Shown: positions 3,310 through 23,167 of the stretch, in pieces
Numbering within the stretch: position 1 is the first letter of the stretch
How the letters are laid out: each line of letters begins with the position of its first letter
Assembly: GCA_004431415.1 (NCBI GenBank)
Contig: QPMI01000477.1
Coordinates: 62,001-126,000 of the forward strand
Length of the DNA: 64,000 nt
Direction of reading: 5' to 3'
Origin: Cyanophora paradoxa CCMP329
Taxonomy: Eukaryota > Plantae > Glaucophyta
Program-made: the position numbers and the translations under genes
The notes under the pieces: model-generated
Databases searched by the model: none
What the model saw: the letters and a program-made list of their open reading frames with translations, nothing else
What the model was told of the DNA's origin: nothing

Positions 3310-3717
3310 TATTATTATGGGGAGGACCCCCCCCAAATCAAACCGCCGACAAGTCTGATTTTACCTTCAGGGATCCACCCCATTTTAGCGTCATCAACTA
3401 ACATTTTCCCTGAAAAATTTTAGACGTGTTACAAGTAGATGTGTTGATGGGAAAAGCATGGATATGGAGATTGGAGGGCGTGAGAGCGAGTACAGAGAAG
3501 CTAAACGAGGAAAATGCGTTAAGCTATAGCTAGGCGATATTAATGAGTACAGAGAAGCTAAACGAGGAAACGTGTTAAGCTCTAGCTAGATGTAATTGAT
3601 GTGTACAGAGAAGCTAAACGAGGAAAAAGCGTTAAGCTATAGCCGCACGTAAGGACGGGAGCGTCAGCCAGAAGGCTTCCTGCTCTTCGAGCCCCCAGAG
3701 CGGTCTGGTGCGGCCTC
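3310..3717 (+). repeat. Left terminal inverted repeat (408 bp)
   Basis: TATTATTATGGGGAGG...GGTGCGGCCTC is the reverse complement of 22760-23167, with no mismatch seen by eye. Contains three ~56-bp GTACAGAGAAGCTAAACGAGGAAA..TTAAGCT.TAGC units. Confidence 0.97.
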
Positions 3718-3858
3718 TGGAGATGTGTCGATGACTTTATCTTTGTTTTAATTGTTTTAATTCGGAGGGTCAAGTTCACGAGAAAACTTTGCGGACGCCG
3801 TGACGTGATGCTGTGACGTGGCGAGAAAACGGCGAGATACGTGACACACAAGAGAATG

Positions 3859-3900
3859 GCGCTGATAGTGCGCTGATAGTGCGCTGATAGTGCGCTGATA
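3859..3900 (+). repeat. 11-bp tandem repeat (GCGCTGATAGT x~3.8) upstream of pPolB
   Basis: Directly visible; lies between the left TIR and the PolB ATG. Confidence 0.9.
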
Positions 3901-4007
3901 TTGACATGATATAAAGGAAACGCAGACTATGTTATCGATCAGAGATTGATGCGTTGAAACGCCAAAAACAATAGACCTCCCAATATTCATTCTGAAAGCA
4001 TAGTATA

Positions 4008-7000
4008 ATGGCGAGCGCCGCAGTACTCAAAACTGAGCTGAGGAATTTAGCGACTGAACTCTATGAGAGTGGATATATTCGTGACTCCTTTCGAAACAAG
4101 CTGTTTCGTCTGACCGATACAAGCGGACGGACCTGGTCCGGAACGATTCGTAAATACATTGCGACAATGCTGCGACTGCGGAGCACAGTTCGTCCTGCTC
4201 GTCGTTTGCCTGAGTCAAGGGTAGCGGGGCATTTTGGTGCAATAGCAGCAGCGCGTGCAAACGCTGTTCAAGCCGAGGAGGCAATCCTAGAGGACGTTCC
4301 GAACATATTTCAGGAAGTCGAAGATGTTCGAGTAACAGAAGTCCTAGACGGCGTGCTTTCTCACAGACACCATCGCTATCCGAATTTGTTGTTTGATAAG
4401 CATGTGTTTGCGATCGCACCAAATTGGAACCCGGAGGAGGTAAAAACCATAGCGATCGACATTCTTGATCACTTGGGTGTGGCGGGAATGATAGGCCGGT
4501 TTGTGATTATCCGCTTCCGCTTCGAAAAAAATCAAATGTACACAACTCAGCTGATTCAAATTGGGCAAAACGGGCTTCGAGTTTTGACCGAGAGTTTGGA
4601 TGAGCGCATCGCGCAGTGGATGGCAGCTCAAATGTCGTACGAGGAAGATGATTTCTGGGTAGTAACATCGATTGAGGTGTTGATTGCAGACAACGCGGCA
4701 GGCGCCCTGGGGAACATCCCGAAACTGCCGTTTTACCACAGGACAGTAGATAAACTGTACTGCCCGATGTCACCAACTAATGATTGCGTGCTGGAGTGTT
4801 TTGAGTACGTAAAATTAAATCCACGGGGTTTAAGTCTGAAGACAGTGATTGAAAAATTAGCGAAGGCGCCCTATACGTCTATTCGAGAGCAGATGGGACT
4901 AGCGAAGGGAATGATATCTCTCGATTGCAGGACAGTGGAAACGATCTGCAGGTTTTATTCGATTGATGCAACCGTGACGGAGTGGGAAGCAACAAAGTTT
5001 AAGGAGCTTTTTCGAACTGAGCTGAGCTTTTCAAAGCGAGCGATACTTTGCAATATAGACGGACATTGTTTCCTCGTAAAGAACGAAGCAACACTGTCTC
5101 TTGAGAAGTGCCCTTGTTGCGGAAAGATGTTTGATTTGGCGACGCACCGAGCAAACTGCAGCTTTTGCAATCAGTGCAAGCGTGCTTACGACCCGCGGAA
5201 GGACCACACATCGGAATGTCAGAAAATGACGCGGCGGCAAAATGTGATCGGGCGACAAATCAAGCCCTGCAAACCGGAGACAGAATTTTCAGCGTTGGAC
5301 AGCGTTGTCTGCGCGGATTTCGAGACGTTTGCTCCTGATAGCAAGACGCATGTTCCATACGCTATGAGCTATTGCACGATCGATAATGGGGAGATATCAC
5401 CTTGCGAGGTTGTATATGGTGAGCAAACACTGGAGACATTCATGCGATGGCTCGAGCAACGCAACGAGAATACCACGTTGATTTTCTACAACGGGTCTGG
5501 GTTTGATTATATATTCGTCTACAAATGGCTTGTGCTTAATCGAGCGGAGACTGCCGTGAACGTTCTGAGATCGAACGGAAAAATTAAGAGTATGTCGTGG
5601 AAGACTGGTGCGGGAGGGAAAATCAGCACGTTTGATCCATGTCTTCACATCCAGGCCTCGCTAAAGTCGGCATGCAAAGATTACGGGTGCACGAATGTAA
5701 AGGGAGATTTTGATCATAACAAGATTAAAACGTGGGAGGATGTTGAGCGTTTTAAATCTGAATGGGAGCCGTACGTGGAAGACGACGTTAAGGCAATGAC
5801 AGAGCTTTACATTAAATATTCGACAGCAGTCTTTGATCTGTACGGCTTAAACGTGAACACGACGCAAACAACCACAGCTTCGGCAATGGCGTTCCAGATT
5901 CATCGGCAGACTTTGATCAATCCGATTTCGCTGCCGACCTACAAGGATGATCAGGTGCTGCGCCAAGCAATATATGGTGGTCGGTGTCTCCCATTTAAAC
6001 GCAAATTCGTCTCATCGGGCCCGGATGATTATTTAGTCGACCTGGATGTTGTAAGCTTGTATCCGACGGCTATGTACGAGAATTGGTTTCCGACTGGTAA
6101 GTACAAGCATATTACGTCGCCCGATGCACTGGACAGATTCTGCAAATTTGTCCAATCGAGTCAGCGTTCGCTGATGTTTATAGCGTGCGTGGACGTGACA
6201 ATTCCGCAAAATCTGCTGCTCTCTCCGCTGCCGCGGCATGAATCAAACCTAGGCTGGTCTAATCTCAAGCCAATTGAGCGTGGTTGGTATACGTCAGTCG
6301 ATATTAATCGTGCAATTAAACTGGGATGCGAGGTGACGAAGGTGCATGAGGTATACCTGTTTGATGGTAAAGATCAGATGTTTAAGACCTACATGGAGCG
6401 GATGTACTGCCAGAAAGCTAGATCTCGCAAGGGAACAGCTCAGTATGCAACATCAAAGATTTCCATGAATGGCCTTTACGGTAAGTATTGCCAGCGGCCT
6501 GTGATCACAACCTCGGATCTGGTGACATCATACAAGCGATTTCGAGAAATTCAGCGATCAGCGCAGATCACAGACATTTCAATTGAGTCAGACACGCGGA
6601 TGTTTGTCACGTACGAGATTGAGGACTCCAAGCGTGATAGAGCTGTCACTAAACCGTGCTTTATTGGTGCATTTATTCTGTCATATTCGCGGGAGATCAT
6701 GGACAGGTTCCTGGTTGAAATAGGCGCATACTGGAGCATTGATGCAATGCCGTTTTATACTGATACGGACTCTTTGATTGTCCATCGAAAATACGCTGAT
6801 CTGCTGCGTGCAAAAGGGTATATGAAGCCATCATATGATATAGCGACGGCAACAGATGCGGACATTTGCAGACAGGAACTAGGGAAACTTGACTGTGACA
6901 TTAAAGGGCGGATTGTGGAAGCGTATTTCATTGGGCCGAAGCTTTATACGTGTGCATTTGTACGTGACAGCGATTTGCAGCTTGACCTGCATGTACGCGC

Positions 7001-7334
7001 AAAGGGGATTCCGCAATCGTGGATCCAGGAGCACTGGCTGCCGGACGAAACAGAAGCAAGGAAGGAAACCATCGCGAACAGGACTGCTCTTGACGCTTAC
7101 AAACGCATGCTGGAGGACTCAACATATCAACCTCAGTGCATGATTGAATCAAAGCTAGCGCGTGTTTATAGGCCAAACGGGCGTCAGCGGGACAGTGGAA
7201 TCGGCTTTAGTTCGATTATTCAGATACCATTTGCGCGTCAACTCAACAAGTCGCAGTATACAAAGCGCAAGATAATTCCAGACGAGTACTATAGTAGTGT
7301 CCCTCATGAGTACCGAGCAAGCGAGTCGAATTAA
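4008..7334 (+). CDS. polB: Protein-primed family B DNA polymerase (pPolB) with a long N-terminal extension
   Basis: Exonuclease motifs ADFETF, FYNGSGFDY and YVEDDV. Polymerase motifs DLDVVSLYPTAM, KISMNGLYGK and YTDTDS. Confidence 0.97.
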   Translation: MASAAVLKTELRNLATELYESGYIRDSFRNKLFRLTDTSGRTWSGTIRKYIATMLRLRSTVRPARRLPESRVAGHFGAIAAARANAVQAEEAILEDVPNIFQEVEDVRVTEVLDGVLSHRHHRYPNLLFDKHVFAIAPNWNPEEVKTIAIDILDHLGVAGMIGRFVIIRFRFEKNQMYTTQLIQIGQNGLRVLTESLDERIAQWMAAQMSYEEDDFWVVTSIEVLIADNAAGALGNIPKLPFYHRTVDKLYCPMSPTNDCVLECFEYVKLNPRGLSLKTVIEKLAKAPYTSIREQMGLAKGMISLDCRTVETICRFYSIDATVTEWEATKFKELFRTELSFSKRAILCNIDGHCFLVKNEATLSLEKCPCCGKMFDLATHRANCSFCNQCKRAYDPRKDHTSECQKMTRRQNVIGRQIKPCKPETEFSALDSVVCADFETFAPDSKTHVPYAMSYCTIDNGEISPCEVVYGEQTLETFMRWLEQRNENTTLIFYNGSGFDYIFVYKWLVLNRAETAVNVLRSNGKIKSMSWKTGAGGKISTFDPCLHIQASLKSACKDYGCTNVKGDFDHNKIKTWEDVERFKSEWEPYVEDDVKAMTELYIKYSTAVFDLYGLNVNTTQTTTASAMAFQIHRQTLINPISLPTYKDDQVLRQAIYGGRCLPFKRKFVSSGPDDYLVDLDVVSLYPTAMYENWFPTGKYKHITSPDALDRFCKFVQSSQRSLMFIACVDVTIPQNLLLSPLPRHESNLGWSNLKPIERGWYTSVDINRAIKLGCEVTKVHEVYLFDGKDQMFKTYMERMYCQKARSRKGTAQYATSKISMNGLYGKYCQRPVITTSDLVTSYKRFREIQRSAQITDISIESDTRMFVTYEIEDSKRDRAVTKPCFIGAFILSYSREIMDRFLVEIGAYWSIDAMPFYTDTDSLIVHRKYADLLRAKGYMKPSYDIATATDADICRQELGKLDCDIKGRIVEAYFIGPKLYTCAFVRDSDLQLDLHVRAKGIPQSWIQEHWLPDETEARKETIANRTALDAYKRMLEDSTYQPQCMIESKLARVYRPNGRQRDSGIGFSSIIQIPFARQLNKSQYTKRKIIPDEYYSSVPHEYRASESN

Positions 7335-8493
7335 ACAAGCTTATTATGATCCTGAAACTGGTTTTCAGTCTGCAGCACGTTTAGCTAAGCGGCTTAATCT
7401 GCCGCTCTCAAAAGTGCAGGACGTGCTTTCAAAATTAACGACGGCACAGCGTTTTGCGAAAACTGTAAAGGAAAAGCCGTCCACCAGCATTATTTACGAG
7501 GAGCCCGAAAAGTATTACGAAGTTGATTTGATTGATGTCACCCCGTATGCAAGATCAAATCGAGGGATTACATTTATTATGAACGGAATAGATGTGACGA
7601 CGCGCAAAGCGTATAGCATCCCTATGAAGACGAAATCGGAAAGCACTCTGCTAGCCAGTTTGAAGAAATTGATTGATGAACTGCCCTCGAAGCCGGACGT
7701 CATTCAGACAGATCAGGAGTTTAAGGGAACCGCAGCAGCAATGCTGGCGAGTATGGGAATCAAGCATAATGCAGTGGAGGCGCATCGCCCGCAAGCAAAC
7801 GGCAAAATAGAAAGATTTAATGGTACGCTTAAGCGCATCATTGCGAAGTACATGGATGCGTACGACACGGACAGATATATTGAAAAGCTGCCTGCTTTTG
7901 TGCGCAACTATAATTCATCAGAGCATAGGTCGATCGGTACGTCGCCGAACGCTGCAGCAGAAAATCCGAAGGAGACAATTGCACGCAATGACTACCAGAG
8001 AGAAGCGTACGAGCAACAGCACTACTTTGCACAGGCCGAATTTAAAGTAGGCGATCGCGTGCGGGTACAGCTAGAGAAAAAACGTTTCGACAAATCTTCA
8101 AAGCCGACGTATTCAAAAGAAATCTATACGATTATGGAGATAGGTGGCTTTGGACCGCTGCTCAAATTTACGCTTTCGGGCTACGACAAAGCGGTGACCT
8201 ACCAGCGACTATTGAAAGTAGCGGCAGATTCAGAGGAACGTCGTGCTGGAGGAGCAGCACAGAGAGCTATGCAACGACGAAAGAAGGAGCAAAATCTGAT
8301 GCGAGAGAAACTAGACAAGAGTGATATAGAGAAAGCGCGCAAACTCGAGCGTTTGCAAAAGCAATTATTGACTGCAGGTAAAGAGAAATTGAACCCAGGA
8401 GGTGCAACAGCGCGCTGGTATTCGTCGTTCCAGAATAAAACTGCAGCGTACTCAGCCCCTGGCAATACACGGACTCTTCGCCCACGAGCGTGA
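7306..8493 (+). CDS. int: Retroviral-like (rve) DDE integrase of Polinton type
   Basis: YEVDLID..IDVTTRK, IQTDQEF, NGKIERFNGTLK and YNSSEHRSIGTSP, plus the Polinton-type C-terminal FKVGDRVR..FDKSSKPTYSKEIY. The ATG at 7306 overlaps the end of PolB. Confidence 0.95.
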   Translation: MSTEQASRIKQAYYDPETGFQSAARLAKRLNLPLSKVQDVLSKLTTAQRFAKTVKEKPSTSIIYEEPEKYYEVDLIDVTPYARSNRGITFIMNGIDVTTRKAYSIPMKTKSESTLLASLKKLIDELPSKPDVIQTDQEFKGTAAAMLASMGIKHNAVEAHRPQANGKIERFNGTLKRIIAKYMDAYDTDRYIEKLPAFVRNYNSSEHRSIGTSPNAAAENPKETIARNDYQREAYEQQHYFAQAEFKVGDRVRVQLEKKRFDKSSKPTYSKEIYTIMEIGGFGPLLKFTLSGYDKAVTYQRLLKVAADSEERRAGGAAQRAMQRRKKEQNLMREKLDKSDIEKARKLERLQKQLLTAGKEKLNPGGATARWYSSFQNKTAAYSAPGNTRTLRPRA

Positions 8494-8541
8494 AAAAGAA
8501 AGGGCTTCATTCACGCCCCTCTTTTTACAAATTTCCATCCA

Positions 8542-8817
8542 TTACAGCGCTATAACAACGCATTGTTGGAGGGACTCTAGCAACGCTAACTTTTCGTAAA
8601 TTCGATTGCGATAGCGGCGATTTGCCTCTAAGTGATTCTCACTGTTATTGCGTTGATATTTCAAACTGGCTTCAATATGCCGTTGCCGATAATCAGGATC
8701 TTCATTGTAACGACGGCGATGGTATTCTGCACGCTTTGCTTTCCTTGCCGCAGCGATTTCAGGGGTGACAACAATTGGCTTACGCCCAGAACGCTTTGGC
8801 GATGATTCAACATCCAT
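8542..8817 (-). CDS. Small basic protein, possibly DNA-binding
   Basis: KRSGRKP motif and a R/K/Y-rich helix (KRAEYHRRRY..NRRYRNR). Fills the gap between convergent and divergent genes. Confidence 0.6.
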   Translation of the reverse strand: MDVESSPKRSGRKPIVVTPEIAAARKAKRAEYHRRRYNEDPDYRQRHIEASLKYQRNNSENHLEANRRYRNRIYEKLALLESLQQCVVIAL

Positions 8818-8926: not shown

Positions 8927-9211
8927 ATGGAAGCAGACAAGCAGCGTCGCTGTGCCGCAGGAACAATTCGTTTCGGAAAGTTCCGTGGCGAAAGTCATCT
9001 TAAAGTAGTGTTTAGCGATCCGAAGTATGCCGAATGGCTAATGTCTTGGGAACATCTCCGTGAGTACGATAAAAGGCAGTTGCAGCGTGCTTTTGAAATA
9101 TGTCAATCGAACGATCTGTCAACAGTAAACGGGATGCTTGAATATGTAGAGCGAGAGAGGAAACCAACTGTAGAAGATCTTACAGATTTGCCCGATTTTG
9201 ACTTGCCTTAA
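8927..9211 (+). CDS. Small protein with an FGKxxG..DPxYxxWL motif (DUF3820/exonuclease X C-terminal-like)
   Basis: IRFGKFRGE..SDPKYAEWL; in-frame ATG at 8927. Confidence 0.65.
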   Translation: MEADKQRRCAAGTIRFGKFRGESHLKVVFSDPKYAEWLMSWEHLREYDKRQLQRAFEICQSNDLSTVNGMLEYVERERKPTVEDLTDLPDFDLP

Positions 9212-9240: not shown

Positions 9241-9804
9241 ATGGAGGTCACAATTCCAGAAGGCGCTGTAGCGATACCGCTTGGTGGAATTCGCAATCAT
9301 CGTCGAGTCATCGTTGCTTATGCTCTTGTTTCACAGGATGATGCTCAGCGCGTGCTTGGATTCCGCTGGAGTTTACATAATTTTGGATATGCTCAAACCA
9401 CGATCAACAGAAAGACCGTGTTGTTGCATAACTTCATCAGCGGCGAACTCGAAAACGGTTTAACTATCGATCATATCAACAACGATCCAAAAGATAATCG
9501 TCGCGAAAATCTTCGACTGGCAACAAAGCGGCAGCAGACTCTAAACCGTGGCCAGCAGCGCAATAACACCAGCGGTTTCATTGGTGTATCGTTCCATCAG
9601 CAGCGTGGTAAATGGCAGGCGTATTGTAAGATGAATGGGCGTCAAAAGCACATTGGTTACTTTGCAACCGCAGAAGAAGCTGCTAAAGCCAGAGACACCT
9701 ATGCCCTTGATCAAACTTCCGCCGAGGACCGTCCATTTCTGCGTCTGAATTTCACAACCGAATCCGCCGTCCACCCAGAGCTCCCTTCATCTGTGAGCTT
9801 GTAG
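9241..9804 (+). CDS. HNH endonuclease fused to an AP2 DNA-binding domain
   Basis: HNH motif IDHINNDPKDNRRENLR; AP2 motif NTSGFIGVS..KWQAY..HIGYFATAEEAAKARD. Confidence 0.93.
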   Translation: MEVTIPEGAVAIPLGGIRNHRRVIVAYALVSQDDAQRVLGFRWSLHNFGYAQTTINRKTVLLHNFISGELENGLTIDHINNDPKDNRRENLRLATKRQQTLNRGQQRNNTSGFIGVSFHQQRGKWQAYCKMNGRQKHIGYFATAEEAAKARDTYALDQTSAEDRPFLRLNFTTESAVHPELPSSVSL

Positions 9805-10381
9805 AATTCGCTTCAGACACATAAGGCGTTGCGGGCTTTACAGCAGCGTCATCGAGAGCTTGTGAAGCCTTCTCTTTTTCGTTTTTGAGATAGCGTAAAT
9901 CAGGTGCATCCATCACTCTTGTCTTAAACATTTCGCTTCGCAACATCTCACGAATTTTAGCTCTCTCTTGCTTGTCTTTTACGTAGCTCTCGATATTAGC
10001 CGATCGAGCCTCGAGATCTCGCAATTTAGCAGCTAGTTCATCAAATTGTGACTTTGATACCGTTGGTTGTTTAATCTTAGGACCTGAATAGCGTGGTTCA
10101 GAGGCCATGGCTTGGATAATTCTAGCAGCATCATCATCGATATCAGACTGCATTTCGTTTACAATTTTGACCTGGCTTTGTCGATCGTCAACCGCACTTG
10201 CATTAGCTGCTGCCGAGGCGATCGTTTTCGCTACAGGGGCATTTAATTGGGGGTTACTTGCGAGTTCCCCGCTAGGATTAGCAACAGCTGCGCCTTCAGT
10301 CGACCCACTTTCAACTAGTGGTTCAACAACATTAACCTTGCGTCTTTCACGATAACCCTTTTTAGGAATCCCGCGACCCAT
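9752..10381 (-). CDS. Hypothetical viral protein with basic ends and a coiled-coil, possibly a core protein
   Basis: 209-aa ORF with an A-rich start context, directly downstream of the ATPase. Confidence 0.65.
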   Translation of the reverse strand: MGRGIPKKGYRERRKVNVVEPLVESGSTEGAAVANPSGELASNPQLNAPVAKTIASAAANASAVDDRQSQVKIVNEMQSDIDDDAARIIQAMASEPRYSGPKIKQPTVSKSQFDELAAKLRDLEARSANIESYVKDKQERAKIREMLRSEMFKTRVMDAPDLRYLKNEKEKASQALDDAAVKPATPYVSEANSTSSQMKGALGGRRIRL

Positions 10382-10390: not shown

Positions 10391-11131
10391 TTAAGATAAG
10401 ATTTTAAAACGCTTCTTTTTGGGAATAGGCGTTGACTCTTCTTTCTTAGACTCTTCTTGTCTTAGCCATTTAGAGAAACGAAAACTCTTATCTTCGACAG
10501 CTTTATCAACGTACCAGGCCGTATCGTACTTGGTCCCATCAAGGACTAGACACTGATAATCATGCGCCCACTTTTCGAACATGGCTATAAACTCATCCTT
10601 TGGTAGGTGAGAAAACTCTCTATATATTGCCTCAAGTTCGGTGTGATTTGAATAGCTAAAGAAAAAGCAGTAATCACTGTTCGATCTTATAGATTGACTC
10701 AATGCTGTTAGCTTTTGCGTCATAAGAATCGTACTTATATTAAAATGACGACCTTGTGTAAAAAGTCGATTAACGGTCTTGCTATTTCGCAGATCAACAG
10801 TTTCAGAGGCAGCAACGAGATCATCCAATACAAGCAATATCTGCGGCGCTTTCTTTTTGTTTTCAATCAAATTGCGCTGTGAATCAATGATTTCTGCAAC
10901 GATAGATGGCTGAAAATCGTCGTAAAGCTCTTTAGTTATTGCAGAGTATTCACCATTGAATTTGGTGGCAGTGAAAACGACGACTCGGTTGATCTTTGGA
11001 TAGAGCAGTCGAAGCAGATGCTTTGTGCAATAGAAGGATTTGCCGCTATTAGACTTTGAAATAAACAGGGCCTTAAAAGGAACCCTCATTTCTCCCGGCT
11101 GGAACTTTGCGAGTTCTTGAGACGGATCCAT
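10391..11131 (-). CDS. A32/FtsK-like genome packaging ATPase
   Basis: Walker A variant SKSNSGKS, Walker B LLVLDDL and the A32 motif LFTQGRHFNISTILMTQ. The ATG at 11131 avoids overlap with the MCP gene. Confidence 0.93.
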   Translation of the reverse strand: MDPSQELAKFQPGEMRVPFKALFISKSNSGKSFYCTKHLLRLLYPKINRVVVFTATKFNGEYSAITKELYDDFQPSIVAEIIDSQRNLIENKKKAPQILLVLDDLVAASETVDLRNSKTVNRLFTQGRHFNISTILMTQKLTALSQSIRSNSDYCFFFSYSNHTELEAIYREFSHLPKDEFIAMFEKWAHDYQCLVLDGTKYDTAWYVDKAVEDKSFRFSKWLRQEESKKEESTPIPKKKRFKILS

Positions 11132-11156: not shown

Positions 11157-12545
11157 CTAGAGGTTGACCTTGCGAAGCCCTGCAGCATCAACAATTAGGA
11201 CAGTGTGCAGGAGTGCTCGTACCTGAACGTAGATCTTGTTGTTTGCATCGTATGCAGCAGGGTTCATGATATTCAGGAAGCAGCTGCTGCTGTTGGTGAG
11301 ATCAACAAAACCAGTTTGAGCAGCATTTCGAATCGATTTATCTCCACTAATGCAAAATGGCAAACCAGTCAGAACATATCTGTTAAGAGGCGCGTCTAGA
11401 TTTGAGCACTTGAACACATCAGCGATGAGTTCAGCACCTTGCAATAGAGGAACAGGCTCGTTTGAATAAAGCCGCTGGCCATTCAATTCGCAGGAAATAG
11501 TTATATCACGAGTATTTGCCTCGGTTTTGAGGACACTGTGTTTTCCGTCAGTTTGGTTCATATTTGTCTGCTTACGAATGCTAACAAAAAGGCCATAGCA
11601 GAGCCCACTGATTTGAGACAGATTAATTCTGGTTGGCGCACCAGCACCAGCATAAGTAATTGAATCAGCATCAACCCAGCCGACATCGGTAGCGGGAATT
11701 GCGATTCCAGACGTTTTGACTTTCTCAATCACCTGGGCAAAAGTGGCCTCATCAACGTTGATGCAATGAGCAATAATCTTTGGATTCGAAAGCTCCGGAT
11801 TGGCAGGGGTGACACTGAGAACATTGGGAGTTATATTCTGGCCGATGTTTGCAGGGGATGCAGCAGCAGCTCCCACGCTCCCAAGTCCATCTTCTTTAGA
11901 AGCATCACCGCCTATGGCATATTCTGTTACAAACCTACCACCATAGCTGGTTTCGACGAAGCCCTGGGCACGATCACGGAACCAAACCTCGACGGAAACC
12001 TCGCCAGATAGAGCACCAATCGGAAGCACAGAACCCTCCCAGGGACAGGGGATTTTTACACTGAAAATACCTCCAGTGCGATTGCTCCCCTGAGGTGGTG
12101 TTCCATGGAGCCAGCCACCGGATCGGTACTTCTTTTTAAGCTGAGCATCATCATTGAAAATCAGAGCGCTGTGAACAAGCCAGTCCTCGGGGACAATGTA
12201 GCTGTAGGAAGCATATTTGATTTCGATTCGCTTTACGAGAGCACCAACCGATCGCAAATAACCAGTGCGAACCAGGTCAGTGTCACCAGTAAATGCTGTC
12301 AGCTCGGGAAGGGTAAACTGGAGTTCGAGCCCCTGAAGGAAATTGTAGCGGGGCAGGAAATAAGTAACCCTCTTTCCGAAGCAGTCTCCATAGTCATTGC
12401 TTGGGTTGACAACAACACGCACAGGCTTTGTTTGGCTGGTTAGACCTAACATAAGCTCATTGTTCATGAAGAAGTCCTTTGCTTCCTGCGGAGTTGTCAG
12501 GAGCTCTTTGAGACCGAGCCGCTGCAAGTTTTGGGTAACATCCAT
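11157..12545 (-). CDS. Major capsid protein, probably double jelly-roll
   Basis: 462 aa, beta-rich, lying between the penton and the ATPase. FGKRVTYFLPR..LELQFTLPEL..ALVKRIEIK..DWL resembles the N-terminal jelly-roll of NCLDV-type MCPs. Confidence 0.82.
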   Translation of the reverse strand: MDVTQNLQRLGLKELLTTPQEAKDFFMNNELMLGLTSQTKPVRVVVNPSNDYGDCFGKRVTYFLPRYNFLQGLELQFTLPELTAFTGDTDLVRTGYLRSVGALVKRIEIKYASYSYIVPEDWLVHSALIFNDDAQLKKKYRSGGWLHGTPPQGSNRTGGIFSVKIPCPWEGSVLPIGALSGEVSVEVWFRDRAQGFVETSYGGRFVTEYAIGGDASKEDGLGSVGAAAASPANIGQNITPNVLSVTPANPELSNPKIIAHCINVDEATFAQVIEKVKTSGIAIPATDVGWVDADSITYAGAGAPTRINLSQISGLCYGLFVSIRKQTNMNQTDGKHSVLKTEANTRDITISCELNGQRLYSNEPVPLLQGAELIADVFKCSNLDAPLNRYVLTGLPFCISGDKSIRNAAQTGFVDLTNSSSCFLNIMNPAAYDANNKIYVQVRALLHTVLIVDAAGLRKVNL

Positions 12546-15066: not shown

Positions 15067-15325
15067 TGTAACGTCCCCGGAAATCAAGCCGGAATGCATT
15101 CACATTTATAAATTCGTTTGTTATAATTTGCACATAGTTATATACCTGTGGGGTGATCAAGTGCGAGTCACTATGCATTAGATCGAAGCCTGTCATAGAT
15201 GGGTTTGCAGCAAGCACATTTGCTAGGACCGTGTTTTCAAATAGTGCCCCGTCTCGTAAATATCCTAAATTGGTCAGAATGCTGAAATTAAATAGAACTC
15301 CGGCGGCAAAGGCTGGCCCATACAT
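15059..15325 (-). CDS. Hypothetical protein, 88 aa
   Basis: ATG lies 2 nt after the patatin stop. Its stop overlaps that of the convergent gene (TAATTAA). Confidence 0.55.
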   Translation of the reverse strand: MYGPAFAAGVLFNFSILTNLGYLRDGALFENTVLANVLAANPSMTGFDLMHSDSHLITPQVYNYVQIITNEFINVNAFRLDFRGRYIN

Positions 15326-15327
15326 AA

Positions 15328-16542
15328 TTATTTGATGTAGCTCAAAAGGCTTTGGAAACTCGACTTTAATCCAGGATTAGGTAAAGTGCCCCCTTGGAAC
15401 CCTGTTGAGTTAGGTCGAACGTGAGAAGGTGGGTGCAATTCCTCAAAGTCGTTGCTTGTGATGTTTGCATCTGGAATTATAAACCAGTTGACATCAAATG
15501 GCGGCTCAACTGTTAAGGTAGACGATATGATAAGTCTCTCATCGTTCAGTATGTCGTAGTTCGCCAGTAGAAAGCTACAGAGTGCATTTATTTTGTTACT
15601 GATTTCGGTTTGTTTCAGCCATAAATCAGTTGTGGAAATCAAATAAGAAATATTCGAAGGCGAGGCATCATCAAGCTTGCTCATGACTGCAGCTGGCAGC
15701 GGAACACTTAAACGCCAGTATCTAGTTAGATTCCTATCTGCATCAACTGGAAGCAGTTCCTGCATTTGAAAGTGCGATTCCAGCTCGCTACCAGCCATTA
15801 GCATAGAAATGATTGGGCTGCCTGAGAGGGATAGAATCCAGCCCAGAGCGCCCCAGCCTGACGTCTCCGCATTTGAAAAGCCTGCAGTCAATTGCTCACT
15901 GGCTTGGACCTCGCCACAGCTAATGCTCACAAGAACAATTGGATCCTCTGCATCATAAATTTTGCTGGCGTGGCTGAGTGCAGCAACTGAGGGATTATTC
16001 AAACAGGCGATGGCCCCGTCAACAAGGTTTTTGTCTCCTAGAACCTTCGGTGGAAAGAATGTTGGCGCTGCAGAAGATGCTCTAACTGCATCACGAATCA
16101 GCGTGCTCGAGTATGGCCCATCTTTGGTGAAAACTACGGGCTGCATCCGAACTGTATCAAACGCTGTAATTAATATGTCTTTGGTCGATTCTGCAATTGT
16201 GTAGTCTAGGGCAACGTCTGTGAGCACCGACTCTAGAGGGTTTGCATCATAGCGGCTTCCTGAGAGCAAGCTTGTGAGTGATCTCGGATTTGCAAATATT
16301 ACAGGTAGGTTCGTTTGATATAAACTGAAGATATCACCTGCAGAATATCGATAAGCGAGAACAGAGCCTGGAGTTGATGGGATAGCCAAACCGGCCGCTA
16401 TTATTGCCCCTGTTGAGGTGCCTGCAAAGAAATCAAACAGTTGTGGAATTGCTTTCCCAGTAATCGCCTCGATCCGCTGTAGAATTCGGGCAATGACTAT
16501 GCCACGAGCACCTCCACCTGATAGTGAGAGAATGACCTTCAT
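15328..16542 (-). CDS. Patatin-like phospholipase
   Basis: LSLSGGGARG oxyanion motif, GTSTG nucleophile, SSAAPTFF and DGA catalytic Asp. ATG at 16542 in a TAAAAATG context. Confidence 0.93.
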   Translation of the reverse strand: MKVILSLSGGGARGIVIARILQRIEAITGKAIPQLFDFFAGTSTGAIIAAGLAIPSTPGSVLAYRYSAGDIFSLYQTNLPVIFANPRSLTSLLSGSRYDANPLESVLTDVALDYTIAESTKDILITAFDTVRMQPVVFTKDGPYSSTLIRDAVRASSAAPTFFPPKVLGDKNLVDGAIACLNNPSVAALSHASKIYDAEDPIVLVSISCGEVQASEQLTAGFSNAETSGWGALGWILSLSGSPIISMLMAGSELESHFQMQELLPVDADRNLTRYWRLSVPLPAAVMSKLDDASPSNISYLISTTDLWLKQTEISNKINALCSFLLANYDILNDERLIISSTLTVEPPFDVNWFIIPDANITSNDFEELHPPSHVRPNSTGFQGGTLPNPGLKSSFQSLLSYIK

Positions 16543-16566: not shown

Positions 16567-19350
16567 ATGTCCTACATCTTGAAGAAGCCAGTGCCACTTC
16601 GTAAAGCTCCAGATCTCGTGGATGATCGGCATATAAATATTCGCGTATTTGGAAGCATCTTGGCAGACTACAATGCTGATCGTGACATCCACAGGACCGA
16701 GTTTAATCGTCCAGCTGCATTAATTCTGCGCAACTCACATGTTGGCGCCCCGGATATTGCACAGAGATTTTGTCTGGGTCCAGCTGAGAATTATGTTGCT
16801 GAAATAATCGGATCCAGGGCGTTGCCGCGGCACCTGCGAATTGCCTCCTCAGGCACAGTTTCCAAGTATGATTCTGGTAGATTAATCTTTAGGCTCCAAA
16901 ATGATAGAGGGGTCCACACATCAGCTCTACGTCTAATTGATGAATCCAATGCTGTCACAAACAAGACTGCTGCTCAAATTACAGGGCGAATCCTCCTTGG
17001 TGAAGACGCAGGGATATCAGTGCTAGCATCACAAATCCAGCCGTTTCCCTGGGATTTACTTTTTACAGCTGCACGAGAAGCAAATATTCTATTCGGGTTT
17101 GATGTAAATCAAATCGATACCGAGCCAGCCACCAGGTTAGATATTCCTGGATGCACGTTTGGCTCGATCCTGATGGAAGCTGATAGGCACCTGCTCCCCG
17201 CATTGCATGATAGATATGACCTAGGGCTTCGCACCAGGCAGTGGCGAAATATTCATGGAACAAGTATTTACCAAGACGGCAAAAAAGTGATCACTGAACC
17301 GGAGATAATAAACATTTTCAACTACTACTTTGGACCTATTGTCCCTATACCACCTATACCACCTCTTCCAGGGCTACCGAAGCCTCCAACCCCGGATGGA
17401 CCAGGTCGAGAGCGAGTTGCTGACGAGACAGTTCCTTTCGGTCAACATATTGTTAGTTGGGAGCAAGTTCGCAATAAACCTATATTTGAACCGAAAAAAC
17501 AAATAGATGAACAGTATTTACCTCCTGAAATCGATATCGATCTTGATAATATACCGCTTGAATTTCCACCTGAGGATCACAGACATGTTTGGAGTGAGAT
17601 CGATGAGCAACCCGAGTTCGCAAAGTCAGAGCTTCCTGTCACACTAGCTGTCTCTCTCTACAAATCAATCAACACCCCTGAAAGGTTATATTTGAATGAA
17701 CACTATGTCCACAGGCAGGGAATTCGTGCCAACACTGACATGTCAGGCTCTTTGTTTGTACGGATTCCCCGCGAAATGGAGATAGTTGCTGCAGGTGGAA
17801 ATATCGGCTTGCAGGACACATTTCCCAGTATTTATGTTACAAACTACTACGCCTCTGACATCGAAATGACATCTGTTCTCCCTCCTTTTCTCCCTCCTTT
17901 GCCTTCTCTTCCATTAGATCCTCTTGCTCATGCTGATTTTCATTCTGCAATCCAGATCAACGTAACAGATGTTAGCGATTTAGATTCATCAAGACCGAAA
18001 TTAGTTTTCAGCCGAGAACGTCTTTTACCAGATGCTTTAATTGGAAACCGAGATGATTATAAGAAATGTGAAATAGCATGGGTCAAAACGAATTATAATG
18101 GTGGAGTTCCTGAGGGTCTTTTAGAAATAAATCAGAGAGCCGCAGCGAAAAACATTCACAACGAAAACATTTCAAGAGTGGTAACAGAGGATTATCTGAG
18201 AGACAATGGAGCAACAATCATCGCAGGAATTGCTGTGGAGGGTGCTTACCTTCCTCTCACTGGTGGAACTGTCACAGGTGATGTTCATGCTCCGAATTTC
18301 CTTGTTGATACTCCAAATGCTCAGACATTTCCTGTTGTTCACCCAGGTGCTGAATATATATTAGATGCAAACACTCCAATTAGTAGAGTCGAATTACCAA
18401 CGAATTTCACCTTTAATCTTGTGGATGTGTTCCCAAACAGCCATAATCTCATGTATTTCTCTTCTGAGAATTACCTTTCAGGTGCATTTTCGCCCATTGA
18501 ACTCTCCATACCAAAGCAAAAGGTGAGCTACAAAGAACTCACAGATGTCCCGGCAGGATTTAGTGGTAAATGGACTGATATTACGGAGAAGCCAACTTGG
18601 AGTAGTGTAGCATTCACAGGTGATTACTACGATTTATCAAGAATTCCCGATTTCACCACTTATATACCTCGTTGGATTGATCAAAGTGTAATTATATCAG
18701 AATCTACACTCCCTTTCAATGGGACATGGGATAGACTATTTACTAAGCCGAATTTGCATGCTGTTGCCACAAGTGGTGATTACAACGATTTAACTAACAC
18801 CCCTATTGCACCGACCTTGCATGCTGTGGCTACAAGTGGAGACTACAATGATCTCATTAATACACCAAACTTGCATGCTGTGGCTACAAGCGGGAACTAT
18901 GACGATTTAATTAACACACCCACTTCGCCACCTACTCACAATCACAGCATAGAGTTGCTCACGAATTTCGGTAATTATGTGAATCCAAATGCATATGTGC
19001 AACAAGGGACAGCGGATGTAGTTATACCTAATCAAGTTTATACAGTAGGGCAAGTGTTTACAGCATCAGGAACCGTTACATTTTCTACCCCATATTATAG
19101 TGATCCAATAGTTAATGCTACTCTCGAAAATGATATTATCTTAACAAGTGTCAATTTTACAAACAGCATATATATCTCCGCTGAATTTGTGAGTGGGAAC
19201 CGTGTTGGTTTCAAAAATAAATTCACTTGGATTGCTATATTTACTTGTTACTCGGACATCAATTATACGAATGTGCCCCAAAACGAAAGAACCCTTAAAC
19301 TCCATTGGATTGCTGTCGGACCTCTCCAAAACAATAATATTCTCACGTAA
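16567..19350 (+). CDS. Large fibre/spike-like protein, 927 aa
   Basis: Phage tail-fibre-like repeats (WEQVRNKP, WTDITEKP, 3x LHAVATSG.Y.DL.NTP), YLPLTGGTVTG, LLP..DRYDLG..WRNIH, Pro-rich hinges and a C-terminal GTVTF..P..WIAVG beta domain. Confidence 0.8.
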   Translation: MSYILKKPVPLRKAPDLVDDRHINIRVFGSILADYNADRDIHRTEFNRPAALILRNSHVGAPDIAQRFCLGPAENYVAEIIGSRALPRHLRIASSGTVSKYDSGRLIFRLQNDRGVHTSALRLIDESNAVTNKTAAQITGRILLGEDAGISVLASQIQPFPWDLLFTAAREANILFGFDVNQIDTEPATRLDIPGCTFGSILMEADRHLLPALHDRYDLGLRTRQWRNIHGTSIYQDGKKVITEPEIINIFNYYFGPIVPIPPIPPLPGLPKPPTPDGPGRERVADETVPFGQHIVSWEQVRNKPIFEPKKQIDEQYLPPEIDIDLDNIPLEFPPEDHRHVWSEIDEQPEFAKSELPVTLAVSLYKSINTPERLYLNEHYVHRQGIRANTDMSGSLFVRIPREMEIVAAGGNIGLQDTFPSIYVTNYYASDIEMTSVLPPFLPPLPSLPLDPLAHADFHSAIQINVTDVSDLDSSRPKLVFSRERLLPDALIGNRDDYKKCEIAWVKTNYNGGVPEGLLEINQRAAAKNIHNENISRVVTEDYLRDNGATIIAGIAVEGAYLPLTGGTVTGDVHAPNFLVDTPNAQTFPVVHPGAEYILDANTPISRVELPTNFTFNLVDVFPNSHNLMYFSSENYLSGAFSPIELSIPKQKVSYKELTDVPAGFSGKWTDITEKPTWSSVAFTGDYYDLSRIPDFTTYIPRWIDQSVIISESTLPFNGTWDRLFTKPNLHAVATSGDYNDLTNTPIAPTLHAVATSGDYNDLINTPNLHAVATSGNYDDLINTPTSPPTHNHSIELLTNFGNYVNPNAYVQQGTADVVIPNQVYTVGQVFTASGTVTFSTPYYSDPIVNATLENDIILTSVNFTNSIYISAEFVSGNRVGFKNKFTWIAIFTCYSDINYTNVPQNERTLKLHWIAVGPLQNNNILT

Positions 19351-19370
19351 TTATAAAGAGCAATTTAAAG

Positions 19371-20282
19371 ATGACAACTGTATTCACGCCTGTGTTTTCT
19401 TTGAGTGCAAGTGCTGTCCACAATGTCCAACACACTGTTTATGATTTATCTCCAAGCCACCCTTCAACTGAAACAGCCAAAACCGATTCTTTTAATGAAC
19501 AAAGCATACTCAGAGTCAAAGAACTCCGAGCTGACAAGGCTGATGGAGTCGTTAAAGCTACTCAAATAATCGTATCGAATCGACCCGCAATCTCTTCGGG
19601 GCTGGTCACCAAAGAAAATCTATATGAAGGTCAACAGGATTCCAAAACGGCTTTTAATCCGGCTGATAGGAATTCGGCGGCTTTCCAAGTTTACAGTGGC
19701 GGGGCATGGATTGGGACTGGCTTGGGGGTGAATGGGAATGCGACAGTTAGTGGGACAGGCTCATTTACTGGATTACTCACAGCAAGTGGAGGAGTAAATG
19801 GAAGCACTGGGACTTTCTCAGGGCTTCTTACAGCAAATGGAGGAGTTACTGGAACCACTGGCACATTCAGTGGCAATGTTAAAATGAATAGTCACCCAAT
19901 GATGGGAAGATATGGAACCGCAGCAGGGGGAACCGGAAATACAGATGTGAAATTTGTCGACTATACCACTGGGTTTACAAGACTTGGGACATCAACTTTT
20001 GCTGAGGGTCGGTTTACCTGTCAAACAAAAGGAATATACGTTGTTCATGGTTCTGCATTAACAGATACTATGGCATCAGGCACAGGTAAACTGGAAATTA
20101 AGATAAACGGTAGTTCTGTGAGTCAATTTAGATTTATGATACCAATTGCTAATCTATATACTGGTATGGCAACAGGTGGTGTGGTATCACTTTCCCCGGG
20201 CGATTATGTAGAGATGTGGGTTCAGAATGCATGGAGAGATAGATGTGGACTTTATATAGCCATGCTAACCGCCATCGATTAA
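19371..20282 (+). CDS. Fibre paralog 1: shared N-terminal module, Gly/Thr shaft and C1q-like head
   Basis: LRVKELRADKADGVVKAT module, GTFSGLLTANGGV repeats and C1q-like GRFTCQTKGIY..VVSLSPGDYVEM. Confidence 0.8.
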   Translation: MTTVFTPVFSLSASAVHNVQHTVYDLSPSHPSTETAKTDSFNEQSILRVKELRADKADGVVKATQIIVSNRPAISSGLVTKENLYEGQQDSKTAFNPADRNSAAFQVYSGGAWIGTGLGVNGNATVSGTGSFTGLLTASGGVNGSTGTFSGLLTANGGVTGTTGTFSGNVKMNSHPMMGRYGTAAGGTGNTDVKFVDYTTGFTRLGTSTFAEGRFTCQTKGIYVVHGSALTDTMASGTGKLEIKINGSSVSQFRFMIPIANLYTGMATGGVVSLSPGDYVEMWVQNAWRDRCGLYIAMLTAID

Positions 20283-20304
20283 TTTTATTGCCTTAGAATA
20301 AAGA

Positions 20305-20568
20305 ATGTCGAACATATTCGAGGTGATTTTATCGAATACTGAAAAGCTGGCAATGGAATATATTGCGTTCTCTCCTGCTGAATGGATTATTAATGTAGTG
20401 AAAAGTCGTGCAATGTCGGCAACTGATGACATAGTAGCCAAAGAGGTTCAATCTTGCATTGCCGCTGGAATTCCGATTCCACTCACAAAGGAAGCGATTG
20501 TAGAGCAAGCGTTTAATCGGGGGACTGTTCGAAAGGCAAGCGAAATTCCTGTGAGTGCTCCTATGTGA
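20305..20568 (+). CDS. Small protein, putative fibre chaperone or partner
   Basis: 87 aa. EKLAMEYIAFSPAEWI.N..RA..DDIV..GIPIP..AF recalls small phage proteins found next to C1q-type tail fibres (from memory). Confidence 0.65.
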   Translation: MSNIFEVILSNTEKLAMEYIAFSPAEWIINVVKSRAMSATDDIVAKEVQSCIAAGIPIPLTKEAIVEQAFNRGTVRKASEIPVSAPM

Positions 20569-20693
20569 AGAATTCGAAGAATGAGAGATGGGTTTATTGT
20601 TATTTTTCATAGAGCATGCATAAGAAAGGCATGTATCTTGCATGTCCTTCTTGAAAGTCGTTTATTTTTCTTTCCTTCTTAGTAAAAGAAGCA

Positions 20694-21548
20694 ATGGGTG
20701 AATATAATCGAGTTCAACTGCCCATATATTCCCTTGGATCCCCAGCAATGCACTTTCGCCAGCATGAAGTTAATGATGAGGTTCGTGGTTTAGAATCAAC
20801 AGAGAGACCCAATTCCAATGGTAACTCTTTTGATAAGAATTCGATTATTCGAGTTAAAGAACTGAGAGCAGACAAGAATTCGGGTGTGGTTAAAACAACT
20901 CGACTCCTTGTCTCAAATGCGAACTTCTTCCAACCCACTAATGGAGGTCCTGATGCTTACAGTGTAGACCTGAAAGCCCTCGATTTTGACAAGAATTCTG
21001 CTGCTGTAACTGTGAGATCAGGTGGAGCATTTATTGGTGGTGGTTGCAGAGTTTCAGGTCAACTCTCCTCATCAATTGCATACAATGATGTCCCAGATAC
21101 TCTCGATCAAAATGTGGAGAACCCACAACGAATTCGGTTCTATACACCAGTTGCACAGCAACCTTTTCTTCACTTCTATGTTGCATCATCTGTCACTCTT
21201 GAAAATTCAGAGTTGGTTTCCATTACAGGAACTGATCGTGTGAGAAGGAATATTCCTCTTCCCACAGCAATGCTTTCGATGTGCAGAGCAAACAACAATC
21301 AACCAGGTCACAATTACCTATTCTTTGTTCAAGCATCAAATCATTTCGGTCGGGGATATTGTGTATATAACAATTTGACATTTACTTATGATTTGTTTGT
21401 CACTGAGGTAGGAGTTTACAATACTATGATTATGGGACTGAGAACAGATATAGCAGCTGTTTCGGCACTTCGTGGGGTGAATGTTGCTGATATCTTTACA
21501 ACCGGATTTTACCAGGAGCCAGATGTTATTGACGATCCTACTCCGTAA
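20694..21548 (+). CDS. Fibre paralog 2
   Basis: IRVKELRADKNSGVVKTTRLLVSNANF and SAAVTVRSGGAFIGGG are shared with paralogs 1 and 3. Confidence 0.8.
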   Translation: MGEYNRVQLPIYSLGSPAMHFRQHEVNDEVRGLESTERPNSNGNSFDKNSIIRVKELRADKNSGVVKTTRLLVSNANFFQPTNGGPDAYSVDLKALDFDKNSAAVTVRSGGAFIGGGCRVSGQLSSSIAYNDVPDTLDQNVENPQRIRFYTPVAQQPFLHFYVASSVTLENSELVSITGTDRVRRNIPLPTAMLSMCRANNNQPGHNYLFFVQASNHFGRGYCVYNNLTFTYDLFVTEVGVYNTMIMGLRTDIAAVSALRGVNVADIFTTGFYQEPDVIDDPTP

Positions 21549-21574
21549 AATATATATATATATGTTTAATATAA

Positions 21575-22408
21575 ATGGCTGAACCACCTCCAATTGAGCG
21601 TATTGTTACAACACAGCTTTCATTAGCTGCACCAGCTAACCACGTTCTGCAGCATGCTACTTTCGATGATGTAGAAGGTCTGCAATCGACCGAGGTTCAA
21701 CCGACAATGAATACCTTCGGATCTACACATAAACTTAGATTGCAGGAACTCAGATGCGATAAAAATAATGGTATAGTTAAGACAACGAAACTTCTTGTCA
21801 CAAATGCAAATTTTAGCGCAAATTATGGCGATCCAGACAGCTATAGCTCCCCTATTTCGACTTATTCTTTCGAATCTCGTTCTGGAGCTATTAACTGTCG
21901 AAATGGCGGCGCATATATTGGTGATGGTCTTCGAGTTGGCGGAGCTGTTGGTGCTCCTCTCTTTGTAAACGACACGCCAAACCCGATCGACAATCTGACG
22001 CGGATTCGGACGTACGTGCCCAGTATGAATGCACCATATATTATAAAGATCTTTCCAATCGTTGTTAATGAGCAGACGTCTGTAGTTGATTCTCTTGTGG
22101 AAATTGGTGATCACTACAAGGTAGTAGTGGATATCCCACCTGATATTTATGCTCTTTGTCAAGTAGAGGGAGGAACACCCAATATTTCAGTTGTGATCAC
22201 TCCATATGACAACTTCGGAATTGCTTACCATGGTGTAAATTTCGGTCTTGAAGACTACCAGTTTTTAGTAAGAGCCACAAAGTTTGGAATCTACAAGTGC
22301 ATTCTCTATGCAGAAAGAACCGATGCTATTGCAAAACAAAATATGTATGCAGAGTACGTGGGGACAAACAGGTATTTTCCTATATTCGGCAGCGATACGG
22401 CTCCATAG
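21575..22408 (+). CDS. Fibre paralog 3
   Basis: LRLQELRCDKNNGIVKTTKLLVTNANF and SGAINCRNGGAYIGDG are shared with paralogs 1 and 2. Confidence 0.8.
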   Translation: MAEPPPIERIVTTQLSLAAPANHVLQHATFDDVEGLQSTEVQPTMNTFGSTHKLRLQELRCDKNNGIVKTTKLLVTNANFSANYGDPDSYSSPISTYSFESRSGAINCRNGGAYIGDGLRVGGAVGAPLFVNDTPNPIDNLTRIRTYVPSMNAPYIIKIFPIVVNEQTSVVDSLVEIGDHYKVVVDIPPDIYALCQVEGGTPNISVVITPYDNFGIAYHGVNFGLEDYQFLVRATKFGIYKCILYAERTDAIAKQNMYAEYVGTNRYFPIFGSDTAP

Positions 22409-22443
22409 CTTCCTTTGTTTTTTTTATATTTTTCCAATAATAG

Positions 22444-22761
22444 ATGGATCTGCTCCGTAAATGCATGGACATGTTCCATCTCAACGTCACCAGCAAATTG
22501 AAATGCAGTTGCTGCGAGACAACTATTAACCTCGAAATATCTGACACTGAGGGGTCCCGCACCCCTGATACTCAGCTATCGCCTAATAACACACCCGGGA
22601 CTTCTAGGTCCAATTCTCCTTTTACGCGATCTGACTCACCTGTACCTTGGCTTGATGCTGAAGGTCGAAGATTATCTTGGCCACCCCCAAAGCCGCTGAA
22701 AAGAAGGAAGTCCTTGCTATCAAGTTTCCGAAAGGAGAAGCAACCCGATCAAGTGGAATGA
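22444..22761 (+). CDS. Small hypothetical protein (KCSCC motif, Ser/Pro-rich, basic tail)
   Basis: AATAATAGATG start; the stop codon overlaps the inner edge of the right TIR. Confidence 0.6.
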   Translation: MDLLRKCMDMFHLNVTSKLKCSCCETTINLEISDTEGSRTPDTQLSPNNTPGTSRSNSPFTRSDSPVPWLDAEGRRLSWPPPKPLKRRKSLLSSFRKEKQPDQVE

Positions 22762-23167
22762 GGCCGCACCAGACCGCTCTGGGGGCTCGAAGAGCAGGAA
22801 GCCTTCTGGCTGACGCTCCCGTCCTTACGTGCGGCTATAGCTTAACGCTTTTTCCTCGTTTAGCTTCTCTGTACACATCAATTACATCTAGCTAGAGCTT
22901 AACACGTTTCCTCGTTTAGCTTCTCTGTACTCATTAATATCGCCTAGCTATAGCTTAACGCATTTTCCTCGTTTAGCTTCTCTGTACTCGCTCTCACGCC
23001 CTCCAATCTCCATATCCATGCTTTTCCCATCAACACATCTACTTGTAACACGTCTAAAATTTTTCAGGGAAAATGTTAGTTGATGACGCTAAAATGGGGT
23101 GGATCCCTGAAGGTAAAATCAGACTTGTCGGCGGTTTGATTTGGGGGGGGTCCTCCCCATAATAATA
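22760..23167 (-). repeat. Right terminal inverted repeat (408 bp)
   Basis: Reverse complement of 3310-3717, followed by the TSD GACGCT. Confidence 0.97.

Follow-up and report, generated by a model that had tools for sequence, protein, structure and literature searches.

A near-intact, protease-less Polinton-like virus in the Cyanophora paradoxa genome is likely a member of a family already catalogued in this alga

Does an apparently complete virus in an algal genome mark a new lineage or one more copy of a known family, and could it still become active? These questions are raised by a locus of the glaucophyte Cyanophora paradoxa CCMP329. The window analysed here is the whole stretch of 64,000 nucleotides (nt) on contig QPMI01000477.1 (positions 62,001 to 126,000, forward strand), in which a preliminary description had proposed an intact, recently inserted Polinton-like virus (PLV) of unusual gene combination at 3310–23167. 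We consider it quite probable that the element is a near-intact, young endogenous PLV, one copy of a multi-copy Cyanophora family, likely silent until co-infection by a giant virus supplies transcription. Dependence on such a helper, to which we lean only slightly, is the weakest step of this reading.

The element is delimited by terminal inverted repeats (TIRs) and a target-site duplication (TSD), with predicted exons of one host gene on either side:

2900..3309, plus strand: predicted upstream exons of the interrupted host gene, with introns at 3026–3105 and 3231–3304
3304..3309, unstranded: left TSD copy, 6 bp
3310..3717, plus strand: left TIR, 408 bp, containing a 56-bp repeat in 2.8 copies (3488–3643)
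22760..23167, minus strand: right TIR, 408 bp
23168..23173, unstranded: right TSD copy, 6 bp
23174..23485, plus strand: downstream exons predicted for the interrupted host gene, with a Ser/Thr linker and hydrophobic tail at the end

As described earlier, the TIRs match (408 nt each, 100% complementary) and a 6-bp TSD is present, with identical copies directly outside both arms. The perfect TIRs, the intact TSD and the existence of near-identical sister copies indicate a young insertion, and support the proposal of a recent, near-intact integrated PLV. The element has a GC content of 45%, compared with 56% in the left flank and 52% in the next 5 kb rightward. Between the TIRs, our gene model places 18 genes (20 open reading frame (ORF) pieces) on 17,998 of 19,042 nt; all are readable without introns, whereas the flanking host gene is spliced. 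The dense packing of about 20 ORFs reported previously holds, although there are two frameshifts, near 13800 and near 15373, rather than one. The size of about 20 kb lies within the 14–40 kb of PLVs in the broad sense, and TIRs, integrase and TSD are all present. The window had no Rfam match at 1–30000. The flanks have an observed-to-expected CpG ratio of 1.12–1.16, the element (3310–23167) one of 0.94 together with a small excess of TpG and CpA; this can be read as either mild methylation decay or foreign composition.

Excising the element in silico leaves GT-AG introns of 80, 74, 72 and 74 nt and a single open frame, at whose end a Ser/Thr stretch is followed by a hydrophobic tail resembling a glycosylphosphatidylinositol anchor signal. 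Because the frame rejoins without the element and has this ending, the insertion likely disrupted a host surface-protein gene. The insertion point lies inside what is predicted to be a micro-exon of 12 nt; in a model that skips this exon it lies in an intron instead, and either model preserves the frame. The right TIR end and the first TSD base re-form a possible splice acceptor. No empty-site joint was present among 15 of the 25 joints, a weak test with flanks of only 70 nt. The locus thus appears to be an example of insertional mutagenesis by such viruses, with a host surface-protein gene knocked out.

The same continuity bears on whether the locus might be an assembly chimera or a false consensus of several family copies. 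No contig covers the whole stretch, many window alleles are missing from the run contigs, and polishing of multi-copy endogenous viral elements (EVEs) may yield a false consensus (Bellas 2023, PMC10120064). However, the TSD is perfect, the host frame continues over the site with introns of 72–80 nt, and element DNA occurs in 20 of the 24 listed runs (all under one organism label), which contain 54–63% of the sampled element words. We regard a chimera as very unlikely.

The left part of the element, read as a single genuine insertion, encodes replication and integration functions:

3859..3900, unstranded: 11-bp tandem array, 3.8 copies, upstream of pPolB
4008..7334, plus strand: DNA polymerase B of the protein-primed type (pPolB), 1108 aa (PF03175, E 3.7e-52)
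7306..8493, plus strand: rve (DDE) integrase, 395 aa (PF13683, E 4.6e-9), overlapping the end of pPolB
8542..8817, minus strand: basic ORF, 91 aa, no family match
8927..9211, plus strand: 94-aa ORF with weak matches to an exodeoxyribonuclease X C-terminal motif (NF005937, E 3e-4) and PF20600 (E 0.27)
9241..9804, plus strand: HNH-AP2 endonuclease, 187 aa (PF13392, E 5.6e-11; PF00847, E 6.8e-6)
9752..10381, minus strand: 209-aa ORF with zero Cys and zero His

The Pfam matches in the element are pPolB, rve, HNH_3 with AP2, Pox_A32 and patatin, so the pPolB (E 4e-52), rve (5e-9), HNH-AP2 and patatin genes claimed earlier all have domain support. Catalytic motifs are present in pPolB, rve, the ATPase and the patatin, and a motif check found both exonuclease and polymerase motifs in the pPolB ORF (4008..7334). 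Among the matches listed, the best relatives of pPolB are unnamed environmental proteins at about 34–38% identity. A quick pPolB tree of 54 rows, which include 23 locus hits retained on length out of 48 and the 30 highest-ranked of 120 listed proteins, contains no named references, and a placement of the element is not derivable from it. The 62 loci fetched by pPolB include 16 with an rve homologue and none with the major capsid protein (MCP) of the element, in keeping with the swapping of modules that Barth et al. 2026 (bioRxiv 10.64898/2026.10.13.758929) describe, where a QPMI01 contig with transpoviron-like cassettes is shown. Two loci with pPolB had contents of separate interest: metagenome contig L030 (pPolB and A32) carries a DVNP-family protein (E 3e-7) at 6755–7258 on the minus strand and a Dam methylase, and locus L041 has six clustered kinase or phosphotransferase ORFs and a HIRAN domain at 4354–12310.

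The capsid module follows:

10391..11131, minus strand: A32-type packaging ATPase, 246 aa (PF04665, E 1.6e-9, above the cut-off, and alignment); the longest ORF starts at 11188
11157..12545, minus strand: predicted double-jelly-roll MCP, 462 aa (64% identity to P0001, and fold)
12618..13574, minus strand: penton (minor capsid protein) 1, 318 aa (Atlas clusters and position next to the MCP)
13603..14519, plus strand: probable second penton, about 305 aa (frameshift near 13800; weak collinear match to penton 1)

The 462-aa ORF has zero Pfam matches, and its assignment draws on structure. An AlphaFold model from a five-sequence input (mean predicted local distance difference test (pLDDT) of 55, medium confidence) matched an iridovirus MCP at E 6e-16 and the PBCV-1 MCP at E 2e-15 in Foldseek, and VIA-align gave a Z of 20.4 to PBCV-1 (root-mean-square deviation 4.1, 331 residues aligned). 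The modelled fold thereby confirms the predicted double-jelly-roll MCP. Z was 11–12 against mavirus and Sputnik and 17–20 against capsids of nucleocytoplasmic large DNA viruses (NCLDVs), a ranking that gives no placement, as structure libraries are poor in PLV capsids.

The only word-indexed relative of the MCP is P0001, with 64% identity over 100% of the length, which EukProt lists under Cyanophora paradoxa. A profile run against 1.84 billion representatives returned 8 matches in total and gained four unnamed relatives (23–38% identity, two of them fragments); three matches were judged spurious, one of them on inspection. The exact MCP sequence was absent from the protein collection searched, in which 0 of 10 look-ups gave an exact match and no host gene was paired with a named protein; viral contigs and metagenomes yielded no MCP gene neighbourhoods. 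Scans of viral contigs returned no relatives of the ATPase, whose alignment is highly diverged. In sequence searches against the PDB, the MCP profile, penton 2, the fibre and the patatin tail had no informative match.

Of the two pentons reported previously, the first stands, on its Atlas similarity of 0.97–0.98 to penton clusters of the DUF5901 and V18-19 types (its recognition score fell short of the tool threshold) and its position beside the MCP. Its single-sequence fold, at pLDDT 35, gave no fold confirmation. The second is backed more weakly. Its two pieces align collinearly, though weakly, with the N- and C-terminal ends of penton 1 and are the top two of 19 ORFs against it (z 2.7–2.8 and 1.8, with unrelated ORFs reaching 1.7), hhalign gave E 0.055 and 0.35, and a scan for relatives found nothing. 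By these alignments we take the ORF pair at 13603–14519 to be, with fair probability, a second penton. The MCP and penton most resemble proteins of Nucleocytoviricota, by Atlas features and, for the MCP, by fold.

The preliminary description had recognised no protease, and a dedicated search bears this out. None of the 61 six-frame ORFs of at least 75 aa matched a peptidase family at E ≤ 1, whereas the same library detected Peptidase_C5 (adenain, E 4e-4) in 2 of 95 control ORFs from related loci. A two-sequence profile built from these control proteases reached a best E of 0.7 over 358 element frames. The only unassigned ORF of fitting size for a hidden protease, the 209-aa ORF at 9752–10381, is not a cysteine protease because it has no Cys and no His. 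As neither the adenain-like cysteine protease expected of Polintoviricetes nor the cysteine protease expected of Virophaviricetes was found, we do not file the element in either class, even though it carries the pPolB and rve pair of Polintoviricetes (Maverick/Polinton, Gossevirus). Among the major PLV groups, a core protease is reported for Gosseviruses alone (Bellas and Sommaruga 2026, bioRxiv 10.64898/2026.06.19.733378), and an absent protease is typical for PLVs outside Gosseviruses and Polintoviricetes. The reduced, protease-less morphogenetic module of Aquintoviricetes is present. Neither an HUH endonuclease nor VLTF2/3 had a Pfam match in the element, where five small ORFs are unannotated.

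The remaining genes encode a lipase and putative attachment proteins:

14704..15066, plus strand: basic ORF, 120 aa, no family match
15059..16542, minus strand: patatin phospholipase with a C-terminal domain (PF01734, E 2.4e-25; frameshift near 15373)
16567..19350, plus strand: fibre-like protein, 927 aa, with 54-nt (18-aa) repeats (PHROG 17509, unknown function, E 9e-15)
19371..20282, plus strand: spike-like protein, 303 aa, with a C1q-like head (PF00386, E 0.0034; PDB 4f3j, E 0.0019), paralogue of the ORFs at 20694 and 21575
20305..20568, plus strand: 87-aa ORF (ORF call)
20694..21548, plus strand: 284-aa paralogue with the shared N-terminal module of about 120 aa
21575..22408, plus strand: 277-aa paralogue, 35% identical to the 284-aa ORF
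22444..22761, plus strand: 105-aa ORF that stops where the right TIR begins on its inner side (ORF call)

The single match of the 120-aa ORF (L063) proved to be a chance similarity of 13 residues in a phage. A search with the patatin returned mostly bacterial and metagenomic patatins (29–38% identity; 120 listed of 1,544 matches), and none of those 120 listed was fused as in the glaucophyte form. We take the C-terminal domain of the patatin to be discoidin-like, judging by eye from a discoidin motif and from the text of Bulzu; searches with the tail gave no match. The fibre block described earlier as about 6 kb is present as 5.8 kb at 16567–22408, its designation as fibre being our functional reading. 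The three spike-like ORFs have a common N-terminal module of about 120 aa and differing heads, one of them C1q-like, so the shared module may anchor alternative receptor-binding ends to the capsid. Two of these paralogous ORFs lie at 20582–21915, in the two bins where depth is greatest; variants and loose ends are numerous there, suggesting that the receptor-binding cassette has expanded and is variable.

To which group, then, does the element belong? With its predicted double-jelly-roll MCP, A32 ATPase and penton (by Atlas and MCP-adjacent position), it is a PLV in the broad sense, with the workings of an integrating virus of the mavirus or Polinton type. The closest set is that of the endogenous PLVs of C. 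paradoxa itself. Bellas 2023 (PMC10120064), whose tables use QPMI01 as the C. paradoxa assembly prefix, lists P0001 as an EVE MCP with an iridovirus MCP as its HHpred match (supplement 2, HHpred sheet row 106), and counts 366 MCP genes in the C. paradoxa genome, in two clusters (272 and 94) under no named group. Table S6 of Bulzu 2025 (PMC12220804) gives 0 in all nine protease columns for 156 glaucophyte elements, alongside counts of 139 for A32, 89 for lipase, 85 for rve, 49 for PF03175 (pPolB) and 40 for HNH_3; the standard MCP profile (MCP-POL) matches 2 of the 156. The same source mentions discoidin-patatin fusions and a phage-tail-repeat/H-lectin fibre, and adintovirus-like sequences have been seen in C. 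paradoxa (Starrett 2021, PMC8502044).

Given that the glaucophyte set of Bulzu is protease-less and commonly carries rve, lipase, pPolB and HNH, the gene combination is the family norm. The claim that it is unusual does not hold; even two pentons are reported for some Trimcap B PLVs (bioRxiv 10.64898/2026.06.19.733378), although the available parts of Bellas 2023 and Bulzu 2025 do not mention two per element for the C. paradoxa set. An MCP that falls within an already described set of matching gene content, which the preliminary description had named as speaking against it, is largely what we find: 64% identity to a catalogued C. paradoxa EVE MCP, with matching content (rve, pPolB, HNH_3, lipase and A32). 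By sequence, the family has likely been catalogued in Cyanophora already. The proposed distinct lineage survives in one respect, in that the published MCP cluster lacks a named group; otherwise the element is a relative of the catalogued set. The available parts of Bellas 2023, Bulzu 2025 and Bellas and Sommaruga 2026 place the Cyanophora MCP cluster in no named group, and that of the last does not mention Cyanophora.

Each of the other candidate groups shares part of the element's content. With Maverick/Polintons it shares pPolB and rve, long TIRs, a 6-bp TSD, A32, MCP, penton and a size of about 20 kb, but it is without their adenain-like protease, adds an extra probable penton, a patatin and the fibre block, and has no named Polinton MCP among its sequence relatives. 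Aquintoviricetes PLVs (Gezel-14T/PgVV, TsV-N1, Tsv-S2a/S3b) have the same protease-less module of MCP, minor capsid protein and A32, a lipase and fibre, and integration into algal genomes; they differ in using TVpol and a tyrosine recombinase rather than pPolB and rve, and an alpha/beta hydrolase rather than a patatin, and the MCP of the element falls in none of the named groups of Bellas. Mavirus and EMALE virophages (Virophaviricetes) likewise have pPolB and rve, TIRs, a 6-bp TSD, many genomic copies and, likely in common with the element, a helper-induced lifestyle, whereas the element is protease-less and its modelled MCP scores higher against NCLDV capsids than against mavirus and Sputnik. 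The NCLDV-like small viruses (Mriyaviruses, Zora and Zephyr; bioRxiv 10.64898/2026.06.19.733378) resemble it in their Nucleocytoviricota-like MCP and penton and, for Zora, in size and rve, but HUH, VLTF2/3 and Mriya48 were not recognised in the element (no Mriya48 profile was used).

The class, and very probably the family too, is already published, and the locus alone changes little; the only residual novelty is the unnamed MCP lineage, giant-virus-like in its predicted fold. As a speculative extension that we think improbable, the glaucophyte elements would form a deep unnamed lineage whose capsid module, made up of a giant-virus-like MCP, a pair of divergent pentons and several spikes built on a common anchor domain, is nearer to Nucleocytoviricota than other PLVs are, swapping replication cassettes within one genome, still jumping into host genes and acting as virophages of an undiscovered glaucophyte giant virus.

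Whether this copy could still function depends on the two frameshifts, in the second penton (near 13800) and the patatin (near 15373), both in short C/G runs. The latter severs the C-terminal domain of about 105 aa from the patatin, a 105-codon frame running on from about 15376. At both breaks, family contigs show a one-base gap and an open frame in four of four runs. Those at 13800 are otherwise identical to the window or one letter off over 163–259 nt, and this break is therefore likely to be an assembly error or a private mutation; those at 15373 are relatives of about 92–93% identity, that is, other copies, and hence show the state of the family only. If both frameshifts were real, the copy would be defective and the family would now be spreading through its host's DNA either as a self-synthesising transposon or by using parts provided in trans. 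We find this doubtful. The breaks in the assembly and the origin of the 15373 contigs from other copies are in its favour, as is a derivative without the MCP and both pentons in three of three DNA runs (joint 11106 to 14875). Yet both breaks lie within short C/G runs, the first is crossed, with the frame open, by a contig of 163 nt that otherwise matches the window exactly, frame breaks in multi-copy EVEs are reported to be common assembly artefacts (Bellas 2023, PMC10120064), and pPolB, rve, ATPase and patatin have their catalytic motifs in place.

Sequencing depth bears on how many copies accompany this near-intact one. In three of three DNA runs, the summed contig depth over the MCP is about 25- to 40-fold above that at the pPolB start, a ratio overstated because short contigs overlap. 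Single-contig depths in these runs were 894, 2051 and 983 at penton 2 and 113, 318 and 113 for a pPolB contig of 1.2–1.3 kb; rarest-joint depths (X1/X2/X17) were about 36–45/88–108/41–44. These values, which are not true copy numbers, suggest about 20 near-identical capsid copies against about 3 of the element's polymerase. The capsid half is thus far commoner than the element's own pPolB module, which fits module swapping. A second family joint, 14601 to 3699 in three of three DNA runs, joins the TIR inner region to the 14.6-kb gap; both joint variants may be non-autonomous or rearranged derivatives.

How would such a virus live? By analogy with established families, rve would insert the linear genome and thereby create the 6-bp TSD, and pPolB would copy the genome from the TIR ends by protein priming. 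The jelly-roll capsid, bearing pentons and several spike proteins, would be filled with DNA by A32. The spikes and the lipase would serve attachment and entry, the patatin perhaps helping to breach a membrane; lipase and fibre are reported to be virion proteins in Gezel-14T (bioRxiv 10.1101/2022.07.28.501842). Judging from depth, the capsid module may be common to many copies with other replication modules, the pPolB-rve-HNH block being one swappable cassette. The integrated virus would stay silent until a co-infecting giant virus supplied transcription.

In support of helper dependence, no RNA polymerase gene was detected among the 61 ORFs scanned, the genes read without introns next to a spliced host gene, two divergent gene pairs share just 24 and 28 nt, and an AT-rich motif lies upstream of 12 of the 18 starts, as against 62 of 625 ATGs. 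Integrated Tetraselmis PLVs are reported to wake only with a giant virus (bioRxiv 10.1101/2025.10.09.676808), and C. paradoxa is reported to carry giant-virus insertions and to methylate repeats and viral genes (PMC12344493). Several points weigh against our overall reading. The motif was chosen post hoc and partly mirrors AT richness; a single copy of the mimivirus early promoter is present, within a gene, and no gene has one upstream. No RNA run was among those listed as containing the element, and a run guessed to be RNA gave three contigs with short TIR-like pieces only, which have no bearing on expression. Contig depth is not true copy number, two genes are frameshifted in the assembly, and TsV-N1, a protease-less PLV, is reported to be autonomous.

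That precedent suggests that the same virus might be autonomous, transcribed in the nucleus by host Pol II and restrained only by CpG methylation, so that stress or demethylation alone would release it. The element encodes its own polymerase, integrase, spikes and lipase, and C. paradoxa is reported to silence repeats and viral genes through CpG methylation (PMC12344493). However, 10 of the 17 gene junctions have gaps of 9–35 nt, which offer scant space for host promoters, and close TsV relatives are strictly helper-dependent (bioRxiv 10.1101/2025.10.09.676808). We judge autonomy rather unlikely. The literature searched contained no account of a glaucophyte virus isolate; the host grows axenically, which makes induction of its hundreds of related copies directly testable.

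Beyond the element, the window holds other repeats and a probable gene. A host segment of about 3.3–3.5 kb occurs in three copies, 82–93% identical (28959–32395, 38851–42162 and 43275–46910). Adjoining the end of the first copy is a long terminal repeat (LTR) element (32396–37407) with LTRs of about 438 bp that are 100% identical, TG...CA ends and a 4-bp TSD. It has a gag-like ORF (34822–35997, minus strand) with a zinc-knuckle-like motif and, as no pol domain was found, is probably non-autonomous; it is probably also very young. On the minus strand, the very GC-rich region 47000–58050 contains an adenylate/guanylate cyclase fragment (PF00211, E 0.001) and is probably an intron-rich gene.

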